From: an uncultured Lyngbya sp. | Lineage (GTDB): Bacteria > Cyanobacteriota > Cyanobacteriia > Cyanobacteriales > Microcoleaceae | Assembly (NCBI GenBank): GCA_964401105.1 | Contig: CAYNXM010000119.1 | Location: forward strand, 1 to 14,463 | Direction: 5' to 3' | Length of the DNA stretch: 14,463 bases | In this document: one piece after another, positions 3,060 through 14,463 of the stretch | How the letters are laid out: each line of letters starts with the position of its first letter | How positions within the stretch are numbered: the stretch's first letter is position 1 | Translations under genes and position numbers: made by a program | The notes under the pieces: generated by a model | What the model saw: only the letters and a program-made list of their open reading frames with translations | The model's database searches: none | What the model was told of the DNA's origin: nothing

Positions 3060-4634
3060 TCAGAAATTTTTCTCCCCATCTCCCGTATCTCCCGTATCTC
3101 CCGTATCTCCCGTATCTCCCGTATCTCCCGTGTCTCCCGTGTCTCCCCACGTTTGTATCTCTCCATCTTTTCTTGATTCTAACTCCGATGAAGGATCGAC
3201 CACATTATCGGAAGAATGAACCGCTTCAGGTGAATCAGCTAACTCCTGACTGGTTTCCGTTGAATCCGTAATCTCAGATAATAGTTCAGAATCTACTTCA
3301 GTTTCAATTAAGTGAATTTGAACTTGATCTAACCGAGGCCCTTCAGCCGCCGCCACCGTCAATTCAAGGTTTTGATAGTGGAAAACTTCTCCTTCAGTGG
3401 GAATTTTTTGTAGTTGATCGATGATAAATCCTGCTAAAGTTTGATACTCTTCAGTTAAGGGTAAACTTAAGTTTAATAATTCATTGACTTCTTCAATATC
3501 CAACTGGGCTTGTACCAGGAAAGTTTGCTCATCAATGTATTGCAGTTTCACTTCCTCGGTTTGGGTGGGTTCAGCACTTTCCCCAATAATTTCCGCGACT
3601 AAATCTTGAATGGTGACTAACCCGGCTGTGCCGCCAAATTCATCGACAATAATCACCATTTCCGTATGGGCCCGCTGCATTAATGGCAACAATTCACTCA
3701 AAAGAATTTGTGCGGAAATAAATCGCGCTGGACGTACCCACGGTTCAAGAGGAGTTTCCGCAGATAAAATCCGTTCAGCTAAGGGTTTTGCCAAATCTTT
3801 AAAGTCTACAATCCCGATAATATCATCTAAAGATTCCCCCATCACCGGATAACGGGAATGTCCCGAAACGGCTGTTTCATCTAACAAGGTTTGAAATGTA
3901 GCGTTTCTCGGCAGGGCAACAATACTCGTGCGGGGAATCATCACTTCTTCCGCTGCCACATCCCCAAATTCAAACACATTATTTAATAGTTGTCGTTCTT
4001 CTGCTTCTAAACCGGTAGACTCAGTAGAAGTGGCAATAATTAACTGTAATTCTTCCGGGGTAACGCGGGTGTAGGGTTCCCCTGTAAACGTCATACCGCC
4101 TAACTTGAGTAACCAACGAGTAGACTGATTTAACGCCCAGACAAATGGCCGAAAAAAGCGGGCGATCGCTAAACTAGGGGCAGCCAGTAACCGCGCCAAC
4201 TGTTCGGGATAGAGTAAGGCAACGGATTTAGGATAGAGTTCCCCCAGGACAATTTGTAGGTAAGCAATGGCAAAAAAGGTCAGTAGGGGAATGGCAACGG
4301 AATGGGATAAAGTGGCTTGAATTTGGGGGGCAACGGGAAGATAGGATAACCAATTTTTGAGGACAACCGCAACAGTACCCTCGGCAATCCATCCTAAAGC
4401 TAAACTAGAGAGAGTAATGCCAAATTGAGTGGTTGACAGTAATAAATCAATCCGTCGCTGTAGCCGTTGTACACTGCGGGCTGGGGCATCTCCTGCTTCC
4501 ACCAGCTGACTAATGCGCGATCGCCGGACTGATACCATGGAAAACTCAGCCGTGACAAAAAACGCATTAATGGCGATCAGTAAAAATACCGCAAGCAATC
4601 GCACCAGCATATCCTTAAGCGTCAGGGTCATCAT
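3060..4634 (-). CDS. CNNM/CorC/TlyC-family membrane protein (DUF21 - CBS pair - CorC_HlyC) with an acidic C-terminal tail ending in (GDT)7
   Basis: The N-terminal DUF21 membrane region has LLAVFLLIAINAFFVTAEFSMVSVRRSRI. The CBS pair region has EVMIPRTSIVAL and VIIVDEFGGTAGLVTIQDLVAEIIGE. The C-terminal CorC_HlyC-like part has FLVQAQLDIEEVNELL and FHYQNLELTV. I place the start at ATG 4634 (tandem ATG ATG, with a GGGGGA Shine-Dalgarno-like element about 11 nt upstream). The track's 4718 start is a GTG that adds 28 non-membrane residues. Confidence 0.9.
   Translation of the reverse strand: MMTLTLKDMLVRLLAVFLLIAINAFFVTAEFSMVSVRRSRISQLVEAGDAPARSVQRLQRRIDLLLSTTQFGITLSSLALGWIAEGTVAVVLKNWLSYLPVAPQIQATLSHSVAIPLLTFFAIAYLQIVLGELYPKSVALLYPEQLARLLAAPSLAIARFFRPFVWALNQSTRWLLKLGGMTFTGEPYTRVTPEELQLIIATSTESTGLEAEERQLLNNVFEFGDVAAEEVMIPRTSIVALPRNATFQTLLDETAVSGHSRYPVMGESLDDIIGIVDFKDLAKPLAERILSAETPLEPWVRPARFISAQILLSELLPLMQRAHTEMVIIVDEFGGTAGLVTIQDLVAEIIGESAEPTQTEEVKLQYIDEQTFLVQAQLDIEEVNELLNLSLPLTEEYQTLAGFIIDQLQKIPTEGEVFHYQNLELTVAAAEGPRLDQVQIHLIETEVDSELLSEITDSTETSQELADSPEAVHSSDNVVDPSSELESRKDGEIQTWGDTGDTGDTGDTGDTGDTGDTGDGEKNF
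3078..3149. repeat. In-frame 9-bp tandem repeat (6 identical units atctcccgt plus 2 variant units) encoding (GDT)n
   Basis: Read directly. Units of 9 nt start at 3078, 3087, 3096, 3105, 3114 and 3123 (all atctcccgt), then 3132 (gtctcccgt) and 3141 (gtctcccca). On the minus strand they read GGA GAT ACG, giving WGDTGDTGDTGDTGDTGDTGDTGD at the C-terminus of the CNNM/CorC protein. Confidence 0.95.
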
Positions 4635-4749
4635 CTGATCAATTATCCCCCTGAGGTTGATGCATGCCCGTCTCCTGAGATAGATCGCAGCAGTTGAAAA
4701 TGCTTGCCCGTGTGGCACAGATTAGCATGGGGGGATTCATGATAACGTC

Positions 4750-9047: not shown

Positions 9048-9869
9048 CTATACCAACACAACTTCATCTGATAAAGGTTCTATTGGTGTATAATCGCGAG
9101 AGGCTTGAAAATCAGGACGTGGATTTTCTACAGGAAGTGGAAGATTTTTAACGCTGTTGTACCTAATCGCGAATAATGCACGATCAAAAGGAGACATATT
9201 CGAGCTTGAACCATGAACGCAATTAGGGTGCATAAATAGAACCGAACCCGCTTTTCCCTTTGGTGCTACAATACCATACTGATTTACTAATTTTTCAAAT
9301 GTTTTGCGATCGACATGATAAGTCTGGTTCGTTTTAATATGTCGATGCCATTCTTCTTCGCTCTCATCAGTCTCACTGTCTGTGACTGGATTTAAAACGC
9401 TAACGATACCTTCTTTATGAGAACCGGGAATTAACATTAACGGTCCATTAAATTCGTTAACTTCATACAAGAAAACAAGCGCAATGACTAGCTGGGGTGT
9501 AGGAATACCATCTTCTTTATGAAAAAATACATAATCTTGATGCCAGATCCAAACATCATTTTTCCAGGCTATTTTGGGATTAATTTGGCTTTGATGAATA
9601 TATATCTTGCTCCCCAGAATTTGCATTATGGGTTCAATAATAGAAGCATGGTGCGAGCAGCGTCGAAAAATTTCGTTTTCACTATGTACACCTAGAACTG
9701 TGCGGATCTGGTTTTCATCTCCTTCAATAATTTTTCTAGGTGTTTCCTGGGCATATATTGTCCGCAGTTCAGTTCTCATGCGATCTGTTTCTGCTTCAGA
9801 AAAACAGTTTGGCACTAAGAGATAGCCAAGGTCTTCATAAGTTTGCAATTGTTCGCTGCTCAGTTGCAT
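9048..9869 (-). CDS. Fe(II)/2-oxoglutarate dioxygenase, PhyH family, ectoine-hydroxylase (EctD)-like
   Basis: 273-aa ORF with an AAGGAG Shine-Dalgarno element about 9 nt upstream of the ATG. The 2-His-1-carboxylate triad is visible as WIWHQD (HxD) plus the distal His in MHPNCVHGSSSNMSPFDR. The segment W-H-Q-D-Y-V-F-F-H-K-E-D-G-I-P resembles the EctD signature F-x-W-H-S-D-F-E-T-W-H-x-E-D-G-M/L-P. Confidence 0.85.
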   Translation of the reverse strand: MQLSSEQLQTYEDLGYLLVPNCFSEAETDRMRTELRTIYAQETPRKIIEGDENQIRTVLGVHSENEIFRRCSHHASIIEPIMQILGSKIYIHQSQINPKIAWKNDVWIWHQDYVFFHKEDGIPTPQLVIALVFLYEVNEFNGPLMLIPGSHKEGIVSVLNPVTDSETDESEEEWHRHIKTNQTYHVDRKTFEKLVNQYGIVAPKGKAGSVLFMHPNCVHGSSSNMSPFDRALFAIRYNSVKNLPLPVENPRPDFQASRDYTPIEPLSDEVVLV

Positions 9870-9908
9870 GAAAAATTTCTCCTTGAATACTAATACTAAC
9901 GAGCGTTC

Positions 9909-9930
9909 GTGTACCTCAGTTGAGGCACAC
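9909..9930 (-). other. Intercistronic hairpin between the cyclodeaminase and dioxygenase genes
   Basis: Read directly: gtgtacctc (9909-9917) pairs with gaggcacac (9922-9930). That is 8 pairs with one A/C mismatch around the loop agtt. It lies 14 nt downstream of the cyclodeaminase stop codon and is not followed by a U-tract. Confidence 0.3.
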
Positions 9931-9943
9931 CTTTATGGGTTGT

Positions 9944-11029
9944 TTAACCCACTGTTGCTAATGGTTCGGGCTGTGCTGACGAATGCTGCACTGAACTGGT
10001 GATAAACTCGTATGGGTTATAGGGGTCATTCGGACAATATTCAAGTTGCAGACGTTGACCCAAGCCATGAGCTTGTACCAATTCCTGCATAATTGACAAT
10101 GCGACATGGTCTTCTATTGCCAATCCCGTAGAGTCAAATACTGTCTGCTGTTCTCGCCAATGATAAAACTCTTCTGGTCGTTCGATCGCTTCCATTAAAC
10201 TTGAGCCGACTTCCTCGGGTTGTAACTGCTGACATTCGCCTTCAACCAAGGCTTGTTCGGGAAAGTCTGGGCAGACAAAACTCCGTTTGAGTACAGATAG
10301 GGGCAACTCTGTTTTGCCGATGATATCTGCACCTACGGCATTAATATGAACGTGAGGTTTGAGGTTTTCACCGGTCATGACGGGATCTGCTCCTTCATCA
10401 ACCGAGGTAGCCGTACAAATAATGTCAGCATTGCGTTCGAGTTCCTCTAGGGAACAACTCCGAACTGATAGTCCTAAAAATGCGACTCGTGAGGAGAATG
10501 AGCGAGCTACATCTGGGTCAATATCGTAAACTAATACCTGCCGCAATGGAAACACTCGACTCAACCCATGTAACTGGGTGACGGCTTGTGCTCCTGCTCC
10601 TACCAGTCCGACGGTAGCACTATCGGGATGGGCTAGGATCTTGCTAGCGATCGCAGAGGCGGCTCCTGTCCGAATGGCAGTTAGGGTGACAGCATCACAC
10701 AGAGCCACTAAATGACCGTTGTTAAAATCATAAAGGCTTGTGGTTGCCAAAACCGTAGGGATACCGATTGTCTTAATATTGTCTGGCTGATAAGCGACTA
10801 CTTTGATTGTGACAGACTGGTCTGTTTTTCTCATGTAGGGCATCCATTCGACACAAGCACAGGATGGTTTTTTGACGAATCCAGCCCGCGATCGCAGTTC
10901 CCCCTGGCCTCGATTAACTTCCTTGAAAGCTTCGCTCAAGCTAGTCATCATCCTGTCCATTAGGGAATCAAGCCCGATTCGCTTGACAACTTCAGCAATA
11001 TCTTGAGGTCTAATTATCAGTGTTTCCAT
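9944..11029 (-). CDS. Ornithine cyclodeaminase/mu-crystallin family enzyme, lysine-cyclodeaminase (RapL/PipA)-like
   Basis: 361-aa ORF. Family motifs are LTAIRTGAASAIASK, the Rossmann LVGAGAQAVTQ, HINAVGADIIGKTELP and VFDSTGLAIEDHVAL. Overall collinearity with my memory of the lysine cyclodeaminase RapL (GAGAQAVTQ.HALSRV.PL, RVAFL, GKTELP, EGE.QQL, VFDSTG, DPY near the C-terminus) suggests the pipecolate-forming subfamily. Substrate cannot be decided from sequence alone. Confidence 0.85.
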   Translation of the reverse strand: METLIIRPQDIAEVVKRIGLDSLMDRMMTSLSEAFKEVNRGQGELRSRAGFVKKPSCACVEWMPYMRKTDQSVTIKVVAYQPDNIKTIGIPTVLATTSLYDFNNGHLVALCDAVTLTAIRTGAASAIASKILAHPDSATVGLVGAGAQAVTQLHGLSRVFPLRQVLVYDIDPDVARSFSSRVAFLGLSVRSCSLEELERNADIICTATSVDEGADPVMTGENLKPHVHINAVGADIIGKTELPLSVLKRSFVCPDFPEQALVEGECQQLQPEEVGSSLMEAIERPEEFYHWREQQTVFDSTGLAIEDHVALSIMQELVQAHGLGQRLQLEYCPNDPYNPYEFITSSVQHSSAQPEPLATVG

Positions 11030-11211: not shown

Positions 11212-11730
11212 ATGAAACGTAAACATCTATTCTGGCCTGGAGCATTTGTTCTCTTGGGTGTGACAATGATAGGAACGGCTGTCGCCCGGGAACTTACCGA
11301 TGAAGAAGTGACTGTCGTTTGTAAACTGGAAGAAGTGGTTGAGGAGGCGGGAAGAGACGGTTATGACTTGGCTTACTGGCCTGTGGTTCGTAAAGGGCCG
11401 CCGAAAGTCAATGCCCCATTAACCCTCCGACTAGATCCATCTATAGAGTATATCTTTGTCGGTTATTGCGATGAAAACTGCGATGATACTGAGTTGAATG
11501 TCTCTAGCTTGGCAGGAGAAGTGCTCAAGTCTGATGAAGAGGATACTGTCTCTGTTTTGCCTTTTGAACCCGATGAAGAGGCTGTATATGAATTAAACTT
11601 ACAGATGAGCAGTTGTACTGTTGAGGAAGGATGCGTCTATGGTATTGGTATTTTAGCGCCGCGCGGAGTTGATGTCCCTTACTCCCCAGATGTCCCCAAA
11701 GAATTGGCTCAATTTGAAGTATGTGATTAG
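11212..11730 (+). CDS. Hypothetical secreted acidic Cys-containing protein
   Basis: 172-aa ORF. The signal-peptide-like N-terminus is MKRKHLFWPGAFVLLGVTMIGTAVA|RE. The mature part is rich in Asp/Glu and has six Cys residues (including CDENCDD and CTVEEGC). I recognise no family. Confidence 0.6.
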   Translation: MKRKHLFWPGAFVLLGVTMIGTAVARELTDEEVTVVCKLEEVVEEAGRDGYDLAYWPVVRKGPPKVNAPLTLRLDPSIEYIFVGYCDENCDDTELNVSSLAGEVLKSDEEDTVSVLPFEPDEEAVYELNLQMSSCTVEEGCVYGIGILAPRGVDVPYSPDVPKELAQFEVCD

Positions 11731-12018: not shown

Positions 12019-12154
12019 GTGTGACTTATATCGATTTTATCGTCATTAAACCCTTGAATACATAGAAAAAATTGAGCAAGATAGTAATGTGATTAGGCAG
12101 AAAAAACTCTTCCTAAAGCTGAAAAAAATATGATTTTTATCGGAGATCATTGAC

Positions 12155-12313
12155 ATGACTCATACAAGTATCGTCATCCAAGACTTAGAAAAATCTGCTG
12201 CTATTGAGTTAACAGACCTCTCTGTTGATGAATTATCAGATGTTAAAGGAGGTATTCTCTGTATCGTATTAGCCGGCGTTGCCGTTGGATTTGCCGTTGA
12301 AATCTTGACTTAA
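12155..12313 (+). CDS. 52-aa precursor peptide with a double-glycine (GG) leader; bacteriocin-like, with a hydrophobic 19-aa core
   Basis: Absent from the ORF track because it is too short. GGAG at 12142-12145 lies 9 nt upstream of the ATG at 12155, and the TAA stop is at 12311-12313. Translation: MTHTSIVIQDLEKSAAIELTDLSVDELSDVKGG ILCIVLAGVAVGFAVEILT. The leader end LSVDELSDVKGG matches every conserved position of the LSxxELxxIxGG consensus. Confidence 0.7.
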   Translation: MTHTSIVIQDLEKSAAIELTDLSVDELSDVKGGILCIVLAGVAVGFAVEILT

Positions 12314-12347
12314 TCTCAGAAACTATCTGTGACGATAGTAATCATTC

Positions 12348-12369
12348 GAGACGTTCAATCGAACGTCTC
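12348..12369 (+). promoter_or_regulatory. Perfect 9-bp-stem hairpin between the peptide ORF and the PEP-CTERM gene (possible attenuator or processing site)
   Basis: Read directly: gagacgttc (12348-12356), loop aatc, gaacgtctc (12361-12369). It starts 35 nt after the peptide stop codon and ends 69 nt before the next ATG. No U-tract follows immediately. Confidence 0.4.
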
Positions 12370-12437
12370 CACAGCAATCAATAAAATGTTTCACTCCGCC
12401 ACACCGACTCAATTTATCAGACGCTAATTCATCAACA

Positions 12438-13700
12438 ATGTTTAACAAATTCTCTTCACACTTAACTCTGATCGCATTTGGAAGTATTTTAGGGGTTTTT
12501 AATAGTCAAACTCCAGCCACAGCCGCTTTTTTCACAGGAGTAGGAGACTTGCCGGGTGGCGGTTTCAGTAGTGCAGCAACCAGTGTTTCTGCTGATGGTT
12601 CAATTGTGGGTGGGATTAGTTTTAGTGAAGCTGGGCCAGATGGAGAAGCGTTTCTCTGGACAGCAGAAACAGGCTTAATGGGACTTGGAGATCTCCCTGG
12701 CGGCGATTTCTTGAGCGGTGTTTTCGGCGTATCAGATGATGGATTAGCTGCTGCTGGAGCTAGTTTTAGTGCTGAGAGTGCCCTGTCTATGCCACCGCTT
12801 CAGTCTTTTCACTGGACAGCAGAAACCGGACTGGTTCCCTTGGGAGATTTACCAGGAGGTACCTTCAGTAGTTTCACACTCAGTATTTCAGGTGATGGCC
12901 GGGTTGTGGTTGGCGACAGCGATAGTGCTTCCGGTAGAGAGGCATTTCGCTGGAGTGCAGAAACCGGCATGGTTGGACTGGGAGATTTTGAGGGGGGTGA
13001 TTTCGACAGTACTGTCGTCAGTGCCTCTTTTGATGGGTCAGTCATTGTTGGAACGGGGACGAACTCTATTGGTAAAATGGCTTTACGATGGACTGAAGAA
13101 GCCGGGTTGAGCGAACTGGGAGATTTGCCAGGAGGAGAGATCTTTAGCACGGCTGCAAGCGTTTCAAATGACGGCTTAGTGGTTGCCGGAAGAAGTTCAA
13201 GTGCCAATTCAAGTGCCAGTGGCTTACCGGTGACTCTCGCTAGCGGCACAGAAGCGTTTCGCTGGACAGCAGAAATGGGCATGATCGGGTTGGGAGACTT
13301 AGCGGGGGGCAATTTCTTTAGTACGGCCACAGCCATCTCAGGAGATGGCTCAATTATTGTTGGCCAAAGTGAGGGAGCCTTCGGCGAAGAGCCTTTTATC
13401 TGGGATAGCTTGAATGGAATGCGCTCTCTGACAGAAGTGTTAACAAATGACTTTGATTTAGAGTTGGGTAGCTGGACAAATTTGACTGCAACTGAAATTT
13501 CAAGTGATGGCTCAACAATTGTTGGTTTAGGACTCAACCCAGACGGAAACCTTGAGGGATGGATAGCAGGCCTCGATTCTCAGCCTGTTCCAGTTCCTGA
13601 ACCCCGTTCAACCGGAGGAACATTAGTTTTGTTGGGATTGATCGGTATGAGGTTGTTTAAACCCCGCTTTCAAGAGCAAAAAATCAAGACTATCAGCTAA
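12438..13700 (+). CDS. PEP-CTERM sorting-domain protein with 6-7 HAF-like extracellular repeats (probable beta-propeller)
   Basis: 420-aa ORF.
- Signal peptide: MFNKFSSHLTLIAFGSILGVFNSQTPATA|A.
- Repeating 46-58-aa module: GLGDLPGG.F.S.A..VS.DGS.IVG.S.......EAFRW(T/S)AETGM. The Trp codons fall at 12657, 12813, 12951, 13089, 13263 and 13401.
- C-terminus: PVPEP (VPEP at 13593-13604), then hydrophobic TLVLLGLIGM, then basic RLFKPRFQEQKIK. This is the PEP-CTERM architecture. Confidence 0.85.
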   Translation: MFNKFSSHLTLIAFGSILGVFNSQTPATAAFFTGVGDLPGGGFSSAATSVSADGSIVGGISFSEAGPDGEAFLWTAETGLMGLGDLPGGDFLSGVFGVSDDGLAAAGASFSAESALSMPPLQSFHWTAETGLVPLGDLPGGTFSSFTLSISGDGRVVVGDSDSASGREAFRWSAETGMVGLGDFEGGDFDSTVVSASFDGSVIVGTGTNSIGKMALRWTEEAGLSELGDLPGGEIFSTAASVSNDGLVVAGRSSSANSSASGLPVTLASGTEAFRWTAEMGMIGLGDLAGGNFFSTATAISGDGSIIVGQSEGAFGEEPFIWDSLNGMRSLTEVLTNDFDLELGSWTNLTATEISSDGSTIVGLGLNPDGNLEGWIAGLDSQPVPVPEPRSTGGTLVLLGLIGMRLFKPRFQEQKIKTIS

Positions 13701-13730
13701 ACTTTAACTTCCAAAAATTCATTTAATCGC

Positions 13731-14034: not shown

Positions 14035-14463
14035 ATGATGAAACCAATGAAGAATTCCGAAAAAGCGAATAAAGTTGAACGAAATCACGTGTATACAAGT
14101 ATTACTTATGATTTTGTAGTAGATGTGATTTCGGGTTCGTTAAAAGGTCAACAATTTCAGGGATCTTTCAGCTATGATCCTTCAGTGCTGAAAGGTAAAG
14201 GAACGGAGAAAATTAAGGTTTTGGAAGCTGAATTTAATTACTTGAGTAAATACACGGAAGTCCCAGAAATTTCATTCACTGATGGAATTTTTGAGAGACT
14301 GATTTGGGTTTCTGGTAAATCAACTGAACGATTTGGTTTTAATGGTGGTTTTGAGCGAAATCAATTTGGTCGTCCCGAAGAAGCTTTTATCCGAAATGGG
14401 GATGACTATTTTGGCTATCTTGATAAAAACACTTTTGTTGACGGTGCTGGAAAGATAACATAT
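14035..14463 (+). CDS. Hypothetical protein, 5' partial (the ORF runs off the window end)
   Basis: Absent from the ORF track because there is no stop codon in the window. The frame is open from the TGA at 14032-14034 to position 14463, with candidate ATG starts at 14035, 14038 and 14047. Translation: MMKPMKNSEKANKVERNHVYTSITYDFVVDVISGSLKGQQFQGSFSYDPSVLKGKGTEKIKVLEAEFNYLSKYTEVPEISFTDGIFERLIWVSGKSTERFGFNGGFERNQFGRPEEAFIRNGDDYFGYLDKNTFVDGAGKITY... The G.FSYD.S.L.G.G...FNYL pattern loosely recalls the N-terminal domains of some cyanobacterial PEP-CTERM proteins. No signal peptide is evident. Confidence 0.5.
   Translation, partial: MMKPMKNSEKANKVERNHVYTSITYDFVVDVISGSLKGQQFQGSFSYDPSVLKGKGTEKIKVLEAEFNYLSKYTEVPEISFTDGIFERLIWVSGKSTERFGFNGGFERNQFGRPEEAFIRNGDDYFGYLDKNTFVDGAGKITY

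Follow-up and report, generated by a model that had tools for sequence, protein, structure and literature searches.

Near the right end of the DNA analyzed here, a stretch of 14,463 nt from an uncultured Lyngbya sp. (the window), lies a short open reading frame (ORF) whose product carries a double-glycine (GG) leader. The sequence-only reading of this locus had taken the frame for a candidate gene of an exported, bacteriocin-like peptide whose processing machinery would be encoded elsewhere, unless the peptide has another role, such as that of a small membrane peptide. This raises the questions of whether the frame is a functional gene, by which exporter its product would be processed and what the mature peptide might do.

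Re-reading of the frame confirmed that it is open over its 52 codons and that a GGAG motif precedes the start codon with a 9-nt spacer (Table 1). Counting back from Gly33, the leader displays L-12, S-11, E-8, L-7, V-4, G-2, and G-1, all the consensus positions that had been claimed for it, and in addition L-15. Besides this C-terminal LSxxELxxVxGG cleavage motif, the leader contains an N-terminal I-x-I-x-D-L box. The hydrophobic residues at -4, -7, and -12, the acidic residue at -8 and the terminal GG are those expected of substrates of C39-peptidase ABC exporters (PCATs). The strict motif LSxxELxx[IVL]xGG occurred once in the six-frame translation of the window, vs. 0.0005 occurrences expected per window by chance (mean of 2000 first-order Markov resamples), and the leader motif of the peptide is thus not a chance match; a loose hydrophobic/acidic version of the motif is expected 0.6 times and alone is not significant. 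No second GG ORF was found in the window. The 19-aa core likewise proved to be as described, with a GRAVY of 2.49, one Cys (at +3) and a GxxxG motif (G41-VAV-G45). It contains no basic residues and has a net charge of -1, and a monoisotopic mass of 1900.11 Da is predicted for the mature peptide. In an AF2 model of the peptide, residues 33–51 form one helix at low confidence (pLDDT 63), and we predict that the core forms one membrane-seeking helix that packs through its GxxxG face. A PDB sequence search with the leader-family profile returned chance matches only. The expectation that routine annotation would miss so small an ORF did not hold, as the exact 52-aa protein has already been called on 4–6 independent contigs in NCBI-, ENA-, and Logan-derived gene sets.

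Table 1. Positions of the features in the window and in related loci, and sequences of the leader-family members.
Feature	Locus	Position	Strand	Details
172-aa Cys-rich secreted protein	window	11212..11730	+	no Pfam or NCBIfam match
Conserved 5′ region	window	12067..12154	+	GGAG at 12142-12145; conserved GCAAGATAGTAATG block
Peptide ORF	window	12155-12313	+	ATG 12155 to TAA 12311-12313; 52 codons, open; translation MTHTSIVIQDLEKSAAIELTDLSVDELSDVKGGILCIVLAGVAVGFAVEILT
Leader peptide	window	12155..12253	+	33 codons; acidic; MTHTSIVIQDLEKSAAIELTDLSVDELSDVKGG; ends LSVDELSDVKGG
Core peptide and stop codon	window	12254..12313	+	ILCIVLAGVAVGFAVEILT, 19 aa
Two hairpins	window	12322..12369	+	CTATC-N6-GATAG (12322-12339); GAGACGTTC-N4-GAACGTCTC (12348-12369)
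420-aa HAF-repeat protein	window	12438..13700	+	signal peptide; C-terminal PEP-CTERM sorting motif; co-directional with the peptide gene
HAF gene	L001	4127-5380		co-directional
HAF gene	L008	8227-9477		divergent
IS630-type HTH protein	L016	3418-4029		
IS630-type HTH protein	L001	11677-12285		
IS630-type HTH protein	L019	720-1367		
IS630-type HTH protein	L020	9359-9982		
IS630-type HTH protein	L022	9211-9915		
Peptide P0003				leader MKTSSLVIKDLETSSAALQDLSFDELSGVKGG; core IICLIIWLLS
Peptide P0004				leader MKARIEIKDLEQSSTSNTELQDLSLKDMSNVKGG; core VLLDCVMMMMDMTMMA; annotated Moorea/Moorena sp. SIO3G5
Peptide P0008				leader end ...LSADELSGIKGG; core LKLTLPLPFPQPAPIGCIGIWMTF; tandem paralogue of P0003
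Peptides P0006/P0007				MTVIYIDDLKPESYLSELTE[I/M]EIDSTRGG; core LHPLV...

The only close homologue of the peptide, P0002 of the related locus L001, is 77% identical and has the same length, start, and stop. In line with the conservation proposed as a check on the reading, its frame is open and DLSxDELSDVKGG is invariant; the core segment GVAVGFAVE is also unchanged, and the other two frames of this region contain stops both in the window and in P0002. The accompanying check for purifying selection had a less firm outcome, with a dN/dS of 0.41 (Nei-Gojobori, 52 codons) and mostly conservative replacements, which speaks weakly for selection. In the comparison with L001, the non-coding flanks, which comprise ~90 nt on the upstream side and the spacer downstream, show about the same degree of conservation as the peptide gene.

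Similarity to L001 begins, by blastn and alignment, with the conserved 5′ region and does not extend further upstream, and this region is the probable promoter and 5′UTR. Because a simple scan for sigma-70 promoters and terminators gave nothing above shuffle expectation and no convincing promoter, the promoter role is one that we infer. Downstream of the stop codon, the region of the two hairpins folds at -22.8 kcal/mol (z = -1.9); both stems are kept in L001, where the second loop differs. Since the hairpins are not followed by a T-run, they do not constitute a canonical intrinsic terminator, and they may act as a partial terminator or as an mRNA-stabilising element. The second hairpin could also raise the precursor transcript over that of the downstream gene, a role that is speculative given the missing T-tract. 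We also observed a 9-mer, GATAGTAAT, both ~70 nt upstream of the peptide gene (12081-12089) and within the first hairpin. Both copies are largely kept in L001, and the 9-mer may be a shared regulatory site. Rfam gave zero matches in the window, and an RNA explanation for the peptide region was dropped.

A profile search in which every one of 1.84 billion representative proteins was read retrieved three real relatives (P0001, P0003, and P0004) and one spurious repeat protein, and a further search, for which the profile was built from six sequences, brought in P0008 and the pair P0006/P0007. The leader family has seven known members, all apparently cyanobacterial, and is covered by no Pfam or NCBIfam model. 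The leaders of P0001–P0004 and P0008 align end to end; the family cores (10–24 aa) are unrelated in sequence apart from a frequent Cys, which is found in five of the seven members and is missing from P0006 and P0007. This combination of a conserved leader and a hypervariable core, expected of PCAT substrates, is the signature of leader-guided exported peptides. Alignment of 11 PCAT-adjacent peptides from several loci further revealed a common two-part leader, M-x(2-4)-I-x-I-x-D-L ... L-x-D-L-[ST]-x-x-E-L-x-x-[VT]-x-G-[GS], and the window peptide fits this design. Its core segment GVAVG-FAVEILT resembles the cores GKAVGEFVIDVLD of locus L019. Scanning of GTDB species-representative genomes with the peptide alignment gave no relative, and a DNA-pattern scan of JGI metagenomes matched only an unrelated soil GG-leader peptide. 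The latter (L023, 882-1040) is a Lys-rich peptide, MATKKQ...RDLSADELSKVKGG followed by FLPDPNEHK, which shares only the generic cleavage motif.

We then considered by what machinery such a precursor could be exported. No C39 ABC transporter, HlyD protein or modification enzyme was found among the window ORFs of at least 150 aa, as the earlier reading had it, and an exporter is absent within 12 kb upstream and ~3 kb downstream of the peptide gene. In related loci, leader homologues are located 122 nt to ~5 kb from a long-type cNMP-domain/C39-peptidase ABC exporter (PCAT), a HlyD/AprE adaptor and a PpiC rotamase. In L008, P0008 and P0003 lie in tandem, 122 nt upstream of an 893-aa exporter with cNMP-binding, Peptidase_C39, ABC_membrane, and ABC_tran domains, after which an AprE/HlyD adaptor is encoded; a HAF-repeat protein and the PpiC rotamase are found on the divergent side. 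The order in L001 is P0002, a 417-aa HAF-repeat protein and P0006, then, in convergent orientation, the rotamase, AprE (573 aa), the cNMP-C39-ABC protein (911 aa) and a helix-turn-helix (HTH) protein, with an 879-aa Peptidase_C39_2 protein upstream. Both L001 and L008 thereby combine the CAP_ED-C39-ABC transporter, HlyD protein, SurA-type rotamase, and GG precursors of group I/II clusters. Such cassettes also occur in L019, L020 (Dapis sp.), and L022 (Okeania sp.); in each case GG/GS-leader peptides come after the cassette, and their cores are small, rich in Gly and either hydrophobic or amphipathic. The closest named relatives of the exporter are from Dapis, Okeania, and Trichodesmium.

Two further genes of these clusters deserve mention. 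In five of six cassettes, a ~200-aa IS630-transposase-type HTH protein (HTH_23/29/32/33) is encoded directly upstream of the cNMP-C39-ABC gene (Table 1), while none was seen in L008; its position suggests that a regulator of transposase origin was domesticated into this operon. The 172-aa secreted protein of the window has an orthologue in L019 (8824-9342), directly upstream of four GS/GG-leader peptide genes and then of a rotamase-AprE-PCAT-HTH cassette, and its gene may lie at what was once the left border of an exporter cluster.

With the L001 exporter as query, we identified P0010, a 916-aa protein 88% identical to it, on contigs that share assemblies with the window (ERZ23498879, scaffold_1082 vs. 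scaffold_716; also SRR6854573). The C39 signature motifs of P0010 are intact, namely QQSNSDC (Q-x4-D-C) and HYIV-x10-VADP (H-Y-I-V-x10-V-x-D-P). Its cassette (L016) encodes the HTH protein, the cNMP-C39-ABC exporter, AprE (574 aa), and the rotamase (251 aa), arranged as they are in L001, and shows the group I/II gene set, of which the window itself represents the precursor end only. No GG peptide was found beside the L016/L017 cassette, near which an IS605-type TnpB gene is located. By blastn, L001 falls into three blocks, each of which matches a different contig of these assemblies, with 82.5–85.8% nucleotide identity: the peptide and HAF genes (window 12067-13716), the second peptide P0007 (L010) and the exporter cassette (L016/L017). 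P0007 and the cassette are, like the window peptide, intact. The tetranucleotide signature of L016 correlates with that of the window at r = 0.87, the top value among unrelated loci. From this co-occurrence, matching divergence and composition, we infer that the window, P0007, and exporter contigs come from the same organism. The scan for C39 ABC transporters called for by the earlier reading thus located an orthologous cassette on another contig of the same assemblies, in agreement with machinery encoded elsewhere, with the common genome deduced from these comparisons and not from assembly. On sequence comparison, the locus is best explained as a part that has come away from a group I/II bacteriocin cluster of cyanobacterial type, which would be split here over at least three contigs, and the picture is that of a cluster contiguous in the relative L001 and apparently broken up here by rearrangement. 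Clusters of this type are often rearranged (PMC3140520).

In L010 (433-3667), P0007 is followed by an 897-aa protein without a detectable domain, and in L001 the equivalent peptide precedes the exporter cassette. The 897-aa protein was compared with the L001 C39_2 protein as a possible relative, and the two proved to be unrelated.

Taken together, the exporter-linked leader homologues, the two-part leader common to 11 peptides and the orthologous cassette support the claim of a double-glycine precursor of an exported peptide with its machinery elsewhere. As the best explanation, the ORF is probably functional and would encode the precursor of a small peptide destined for export, and it appears likely, on the sequence comparisons above, that the product is a true GG-leader precursor which an unlinked PCAT processes. 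In C39 domains, a two-turn leader helix inserts V-4, L-7, and L-12 into a hydrophobic groove, and the precursor is cut after GG during export (PMC6363468). By the mechanism that we propose, the C39 cysteine-peptidase domain of a long-type ABC exporter with an N-terminal cNMP-binding domain would recognize the 33-aa acidic leader through its I-x-I-x-D-L box and then a short helix presenting L-12, L-7, and V-4. This exporter would be P0010, encoded with its HlyD/AprE adaptor and PpiC-type rotamase on the other contig. Cleavage would presumably occur after Gly33, and the 19-aa hydrophobic core ILCIVLAGVAVGFAVEILT would be exported via the ABC-AprE system.

Several other explanations of the same gene have to be weighed against this one. 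The separation of the peptide gene from its exporter could point to a decaying remnant, that is, a gene cut off from the cluster which is no longer expressed or exported and is intact only since the split is recent. The cluster contiguous in L001 but lying on three contigs here, the TnpB gene near the exporter cassette and a dN/dS (0.41) that is not stringent all fit such a history. Yet the frame, start codon, ribosome-binding site, and GG site are intact and identical in 4–6 independent assemblies, the exporter cassette and the second peptide are likewise preserved, and PCATs routinely process unlinked substrates; we therefore regard a remnant as very unlikely. A precedent for separated components is given by Prochlorococcus marinus MIT9313, in which unlinked components work with group V clusters elsewhere in the genome (Wang et al., PMC3140520). 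Still less credit can be given to an uncleaved, tail-anchored membrane protein, in which the C-terminus would serve as a transmembrane anchor, the acidic N-terminus would stay in the cytoplasm and the GG would not be used. A 19-aa segment of such hydrophobicity (GRAVY 2.49), predicted to be helical and encoded in a window without an exporter, is what this explanation demands. However, the cores of homologues with the same leader measure 10, 16, and 24 aa, one of them being Pro-rich, and cannot all be anchors; moreover, it is the leader and not the hydrophobic segment that is conserved, and the relatives are physically linked to PCAT genes. A tail anchor is accordingly highly improbable.

It is also conceivable, although unlikely, that the peptide is a RiPP precursor, whose leader would also guide modification before export, so that the active product would not be the plain 19-mer. 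The near-conserved Cys, which lies close to where the leader is predicted to be cut, might be the site of such chemistry, or the PpiC-like protein might bring about prolyl/fold maturation. The Cys in the core of five of seven leader-family members points in this direction, as does the cluster rotamase, which weakly matches TIGR04500 (“PpiC-related putative peptide maturation protein,” E = 1e-16, below the cut-off), and cores rich in Cys, Gly, Ser, and Thr are often modified (Wang et al., PMC3140520). On the other hand, P0006 and P0007 lack Cys, and the window core contains neither Pro for the rotamase nor a Ser/Thr-Cys pairing pattern. No dedicated tailoring enzyme of the lanthipeptide or sactipeptide type was found in the window, L001, L008, or L016, and a conserved LanM, cyclodehydratase, radical-SAM maturase or other enzyme of this kind is likewise missing from them. 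A radical SAM gene near L008 was considered as a maturase and turned out to be CofG, a housekeeping gene.

As to the role of the mature peptide, a membrane-active, bacteriocin-like function, possibly exerted together with P0007, can be put forward tentatively, and a signalling peptide is a somewhat less likely candidate; the rest of the probability falls to other or surface/matrix roles. The bacteriocin-like interpretation draws on weak family matches, the GxxxG motif, and the presence, in the cluster of the relative, of another GG peptide that carries this motif. The peptide shares with class IIb/IIc bacteriocins an LSxxELxxIxGG-type leader and a small hydrophobic GxxxG core, predicted to be unmodified and exported by a C39 ABC transporter, and the second GG peptide in the L001 cluster, P0006, also carries GxxxG (IGYQIG). 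Against TIGR03949 (class IIb, lactobin A/cerein 7B) it scored 16.6 bits vs. a cut-off of 21.5 (E = 0.005, residues 22-47), with two of the six aligned peptides matching, even those weakly, and against PF10439 (Bacteriocin_IIc) 15.6 bits vs. a gathering threshold of 27.1; both matches rest mostly on the leader. In class IIb, two adjacent peptides and an immunity gene are encoded and the peptides are cationic, whereas the window contains a single GG ORF, with P0007 elsewhere and a core charge of -1. The core is also shorter (19 aa), and its potential partner is not adjacent, being separated from it by a 1.25-kb gene in L001 and lying on a different contig here. As the host is Gram-negative, export would further need a tripartite system, which is another difference from class IIb. 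The likeness to this class that had been noted earlier stands for the GxxxG motif and the GG leader, and fails at the curated cut-offs, the anionic core and the missing adjacent partner. An anionic core without a basic residue, only 19 aa long (10 aa in P0003), counts against a bacteriocin, as does the lack of an immunity gene: none was identified, and no small membrane-protein gene is conserved beside the peptide gene. Since the anionic, ultra-hydrophobic core is unlike those of typical, cationic class II bacteriocins, a bacteriocin function is just one among several that come into question. A signalling peptide, too, could have a short and hydrophobic core that varies from one relative to the next.

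Comparison with cyanobacterial systems leads to a closer placement. Clusters with a long-type CAP_ED-C39-ABC transporter, HlyD protein, SurA-like rotamase, and short double-glycine precursors constitute groups I, II, and VI (Wang, Fewer & Sivonen 2011, PMC3140520). The same gene set is present in L001, L008, and L016, the 52-aa precursor is within the sizes reported, and an acidic leader is combined with a hypervariable core. In contrast to those clusters, the window precursor is unlinked from the exporter, and the conserved neighbour here is a HAF-repeat PEP-CTERM protein, a term (PEP-CTERM) with 0 occurrences in the text of PMC3140520. The 33-aa leader matched no NHLP or Nif11 leader family of NCBIfam or Pfam at E up to 10, and being neither NHLP nor Nif11, it would fall in the “Other” class of Wang et al. 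(PMC3140520). In Synechococcus elongatus PCC 7942, the small GG-motif proteins EbfG1-4 are secreted and matured by the C39-peptidase transporter PteB (PMC4997328), so that this route has been proven by experiment to operate in cyanobacteria, where its product does not have to be an antibiotic. The mature parts of EbfG differ in being 6–7 kDa, hydrophilic and active in biofilm formation, and no sequence similarity to the window core was found. HetC of Nostoc PCC 7120 shares the architecture of P0010 (cNMP-like domain, C39, and ABC); its peptidase is active, its N-terminal domain binds ppGpp, and the export of a signalling peptide has been proposed by the authors (PMC10986499). Unlike HetC, the loci that we examined show no evident link to heterocysts. 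ComC/CSP, processed by ComA, has a GG leader with the L-12/E-8/L-7 determinants (cited in PMC6363468). It is exported by a PCAT, resembles the window peptide in its GG leader and short (predicted) mature form, and differs in that no two-component sensor is encoded near the window peptide. Mature pheromones differ between close relatives. In hydrophobicity, the window core far exceeds CSPs.

The most interesting loose end is the gene downstream of the peptide, which encodes the 420-aa HAF-repeat protein (TIGR02913 HAF_rpt, E = 5e-18; TIGR02595 PEP_CTERM, 16.3 bits vs. a cut-off of 16). This protein is 85% identical to its counterpart in L001 and 61% to that in L008, and its gene has a dN/dS of 0.16 (Nei-Gojobori). 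A HAF-repeat PEP-CTERM protein adjoins the peptide in all three leader-family loci with readable context, while the gene is absent from the three cassettes with other leader types (L019, L020, and L022). The sample behind this association is small and shared descent is possible. A scan of GTDB representatives with the HAF protein returned only a 44%-identical protein from Planctomycetota, with no GG peptide nearby, and a single-sequence AlphaFold model of the protein was unusable (pLDDT 34). It is conceivable, though unlikely, that the GG peptide functions as a pair with the HAF-repeat PEP-CTERM surface protein, a partnership that would be new for marine filamentous cyanobacteria. The exported peptide, anionic, ultra-hydrophobic and variable between strains, would then act with or on an exosortase-sorted surface beta-repeat protein, its role being in surface properties, kin recognition or signalling and not in killing, and a cNMP/ppGpp-sensing domain of the exporter would control export.

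Other genes around the locus were recorded as well. A 273-aa protein composed of two near-identical halves of ~125 aa, whose DNA copies are 96% identical, is encoded from window 14035-14463 on into L003 (11881-12702) and matches no family. Its comparison with a 273-aa protein near the Dapis exporter gave no match. On the minus strand (9048-11029), a gene for a PhyH-type dioxygenase (273 aa) adjoins one for an ornithine cyclodeaminase/mu-crystallin homologue (361 aa), and the two may form a small amino-acid-modifying pair. Further to the left, we found a XamI-type restriction endonuclease ORF (132-794), which matches only the first 167 of 256 profile positions, and a gene for DNA phosphorothioation-associated protein 4 (TIGR04062; 2517-2984), with a photolyase-family gene (PF00875 and PF03441) between them. 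A 552-aa CNNM/CorC transporter (3060-4718, minus strand) ends in seven GDT repeats (GDTGDTGDT..., 3060-3140).

Nothing here overturns current understanding, and the locus is an ordinary addition to a well-known class. With it, the many double-glycine peptides of cyanobacteria gain a small leader family for which there had been no model. The locus also appears to give a clean example of a precursor that has drifted from its exporter cluster, a gene of the kind that cluster-anchored genome mining would miss. To our knowledge, the only experimentally supported roles of such cyanobacterial peptides so far are in biofilm (EbfG) and heterocyst (HetC) formation, and the pairing with a HAF PEP-CTERM protein and the anionic, very hydrophobic cores provide testable leads on peptide function in cyanobacteria.
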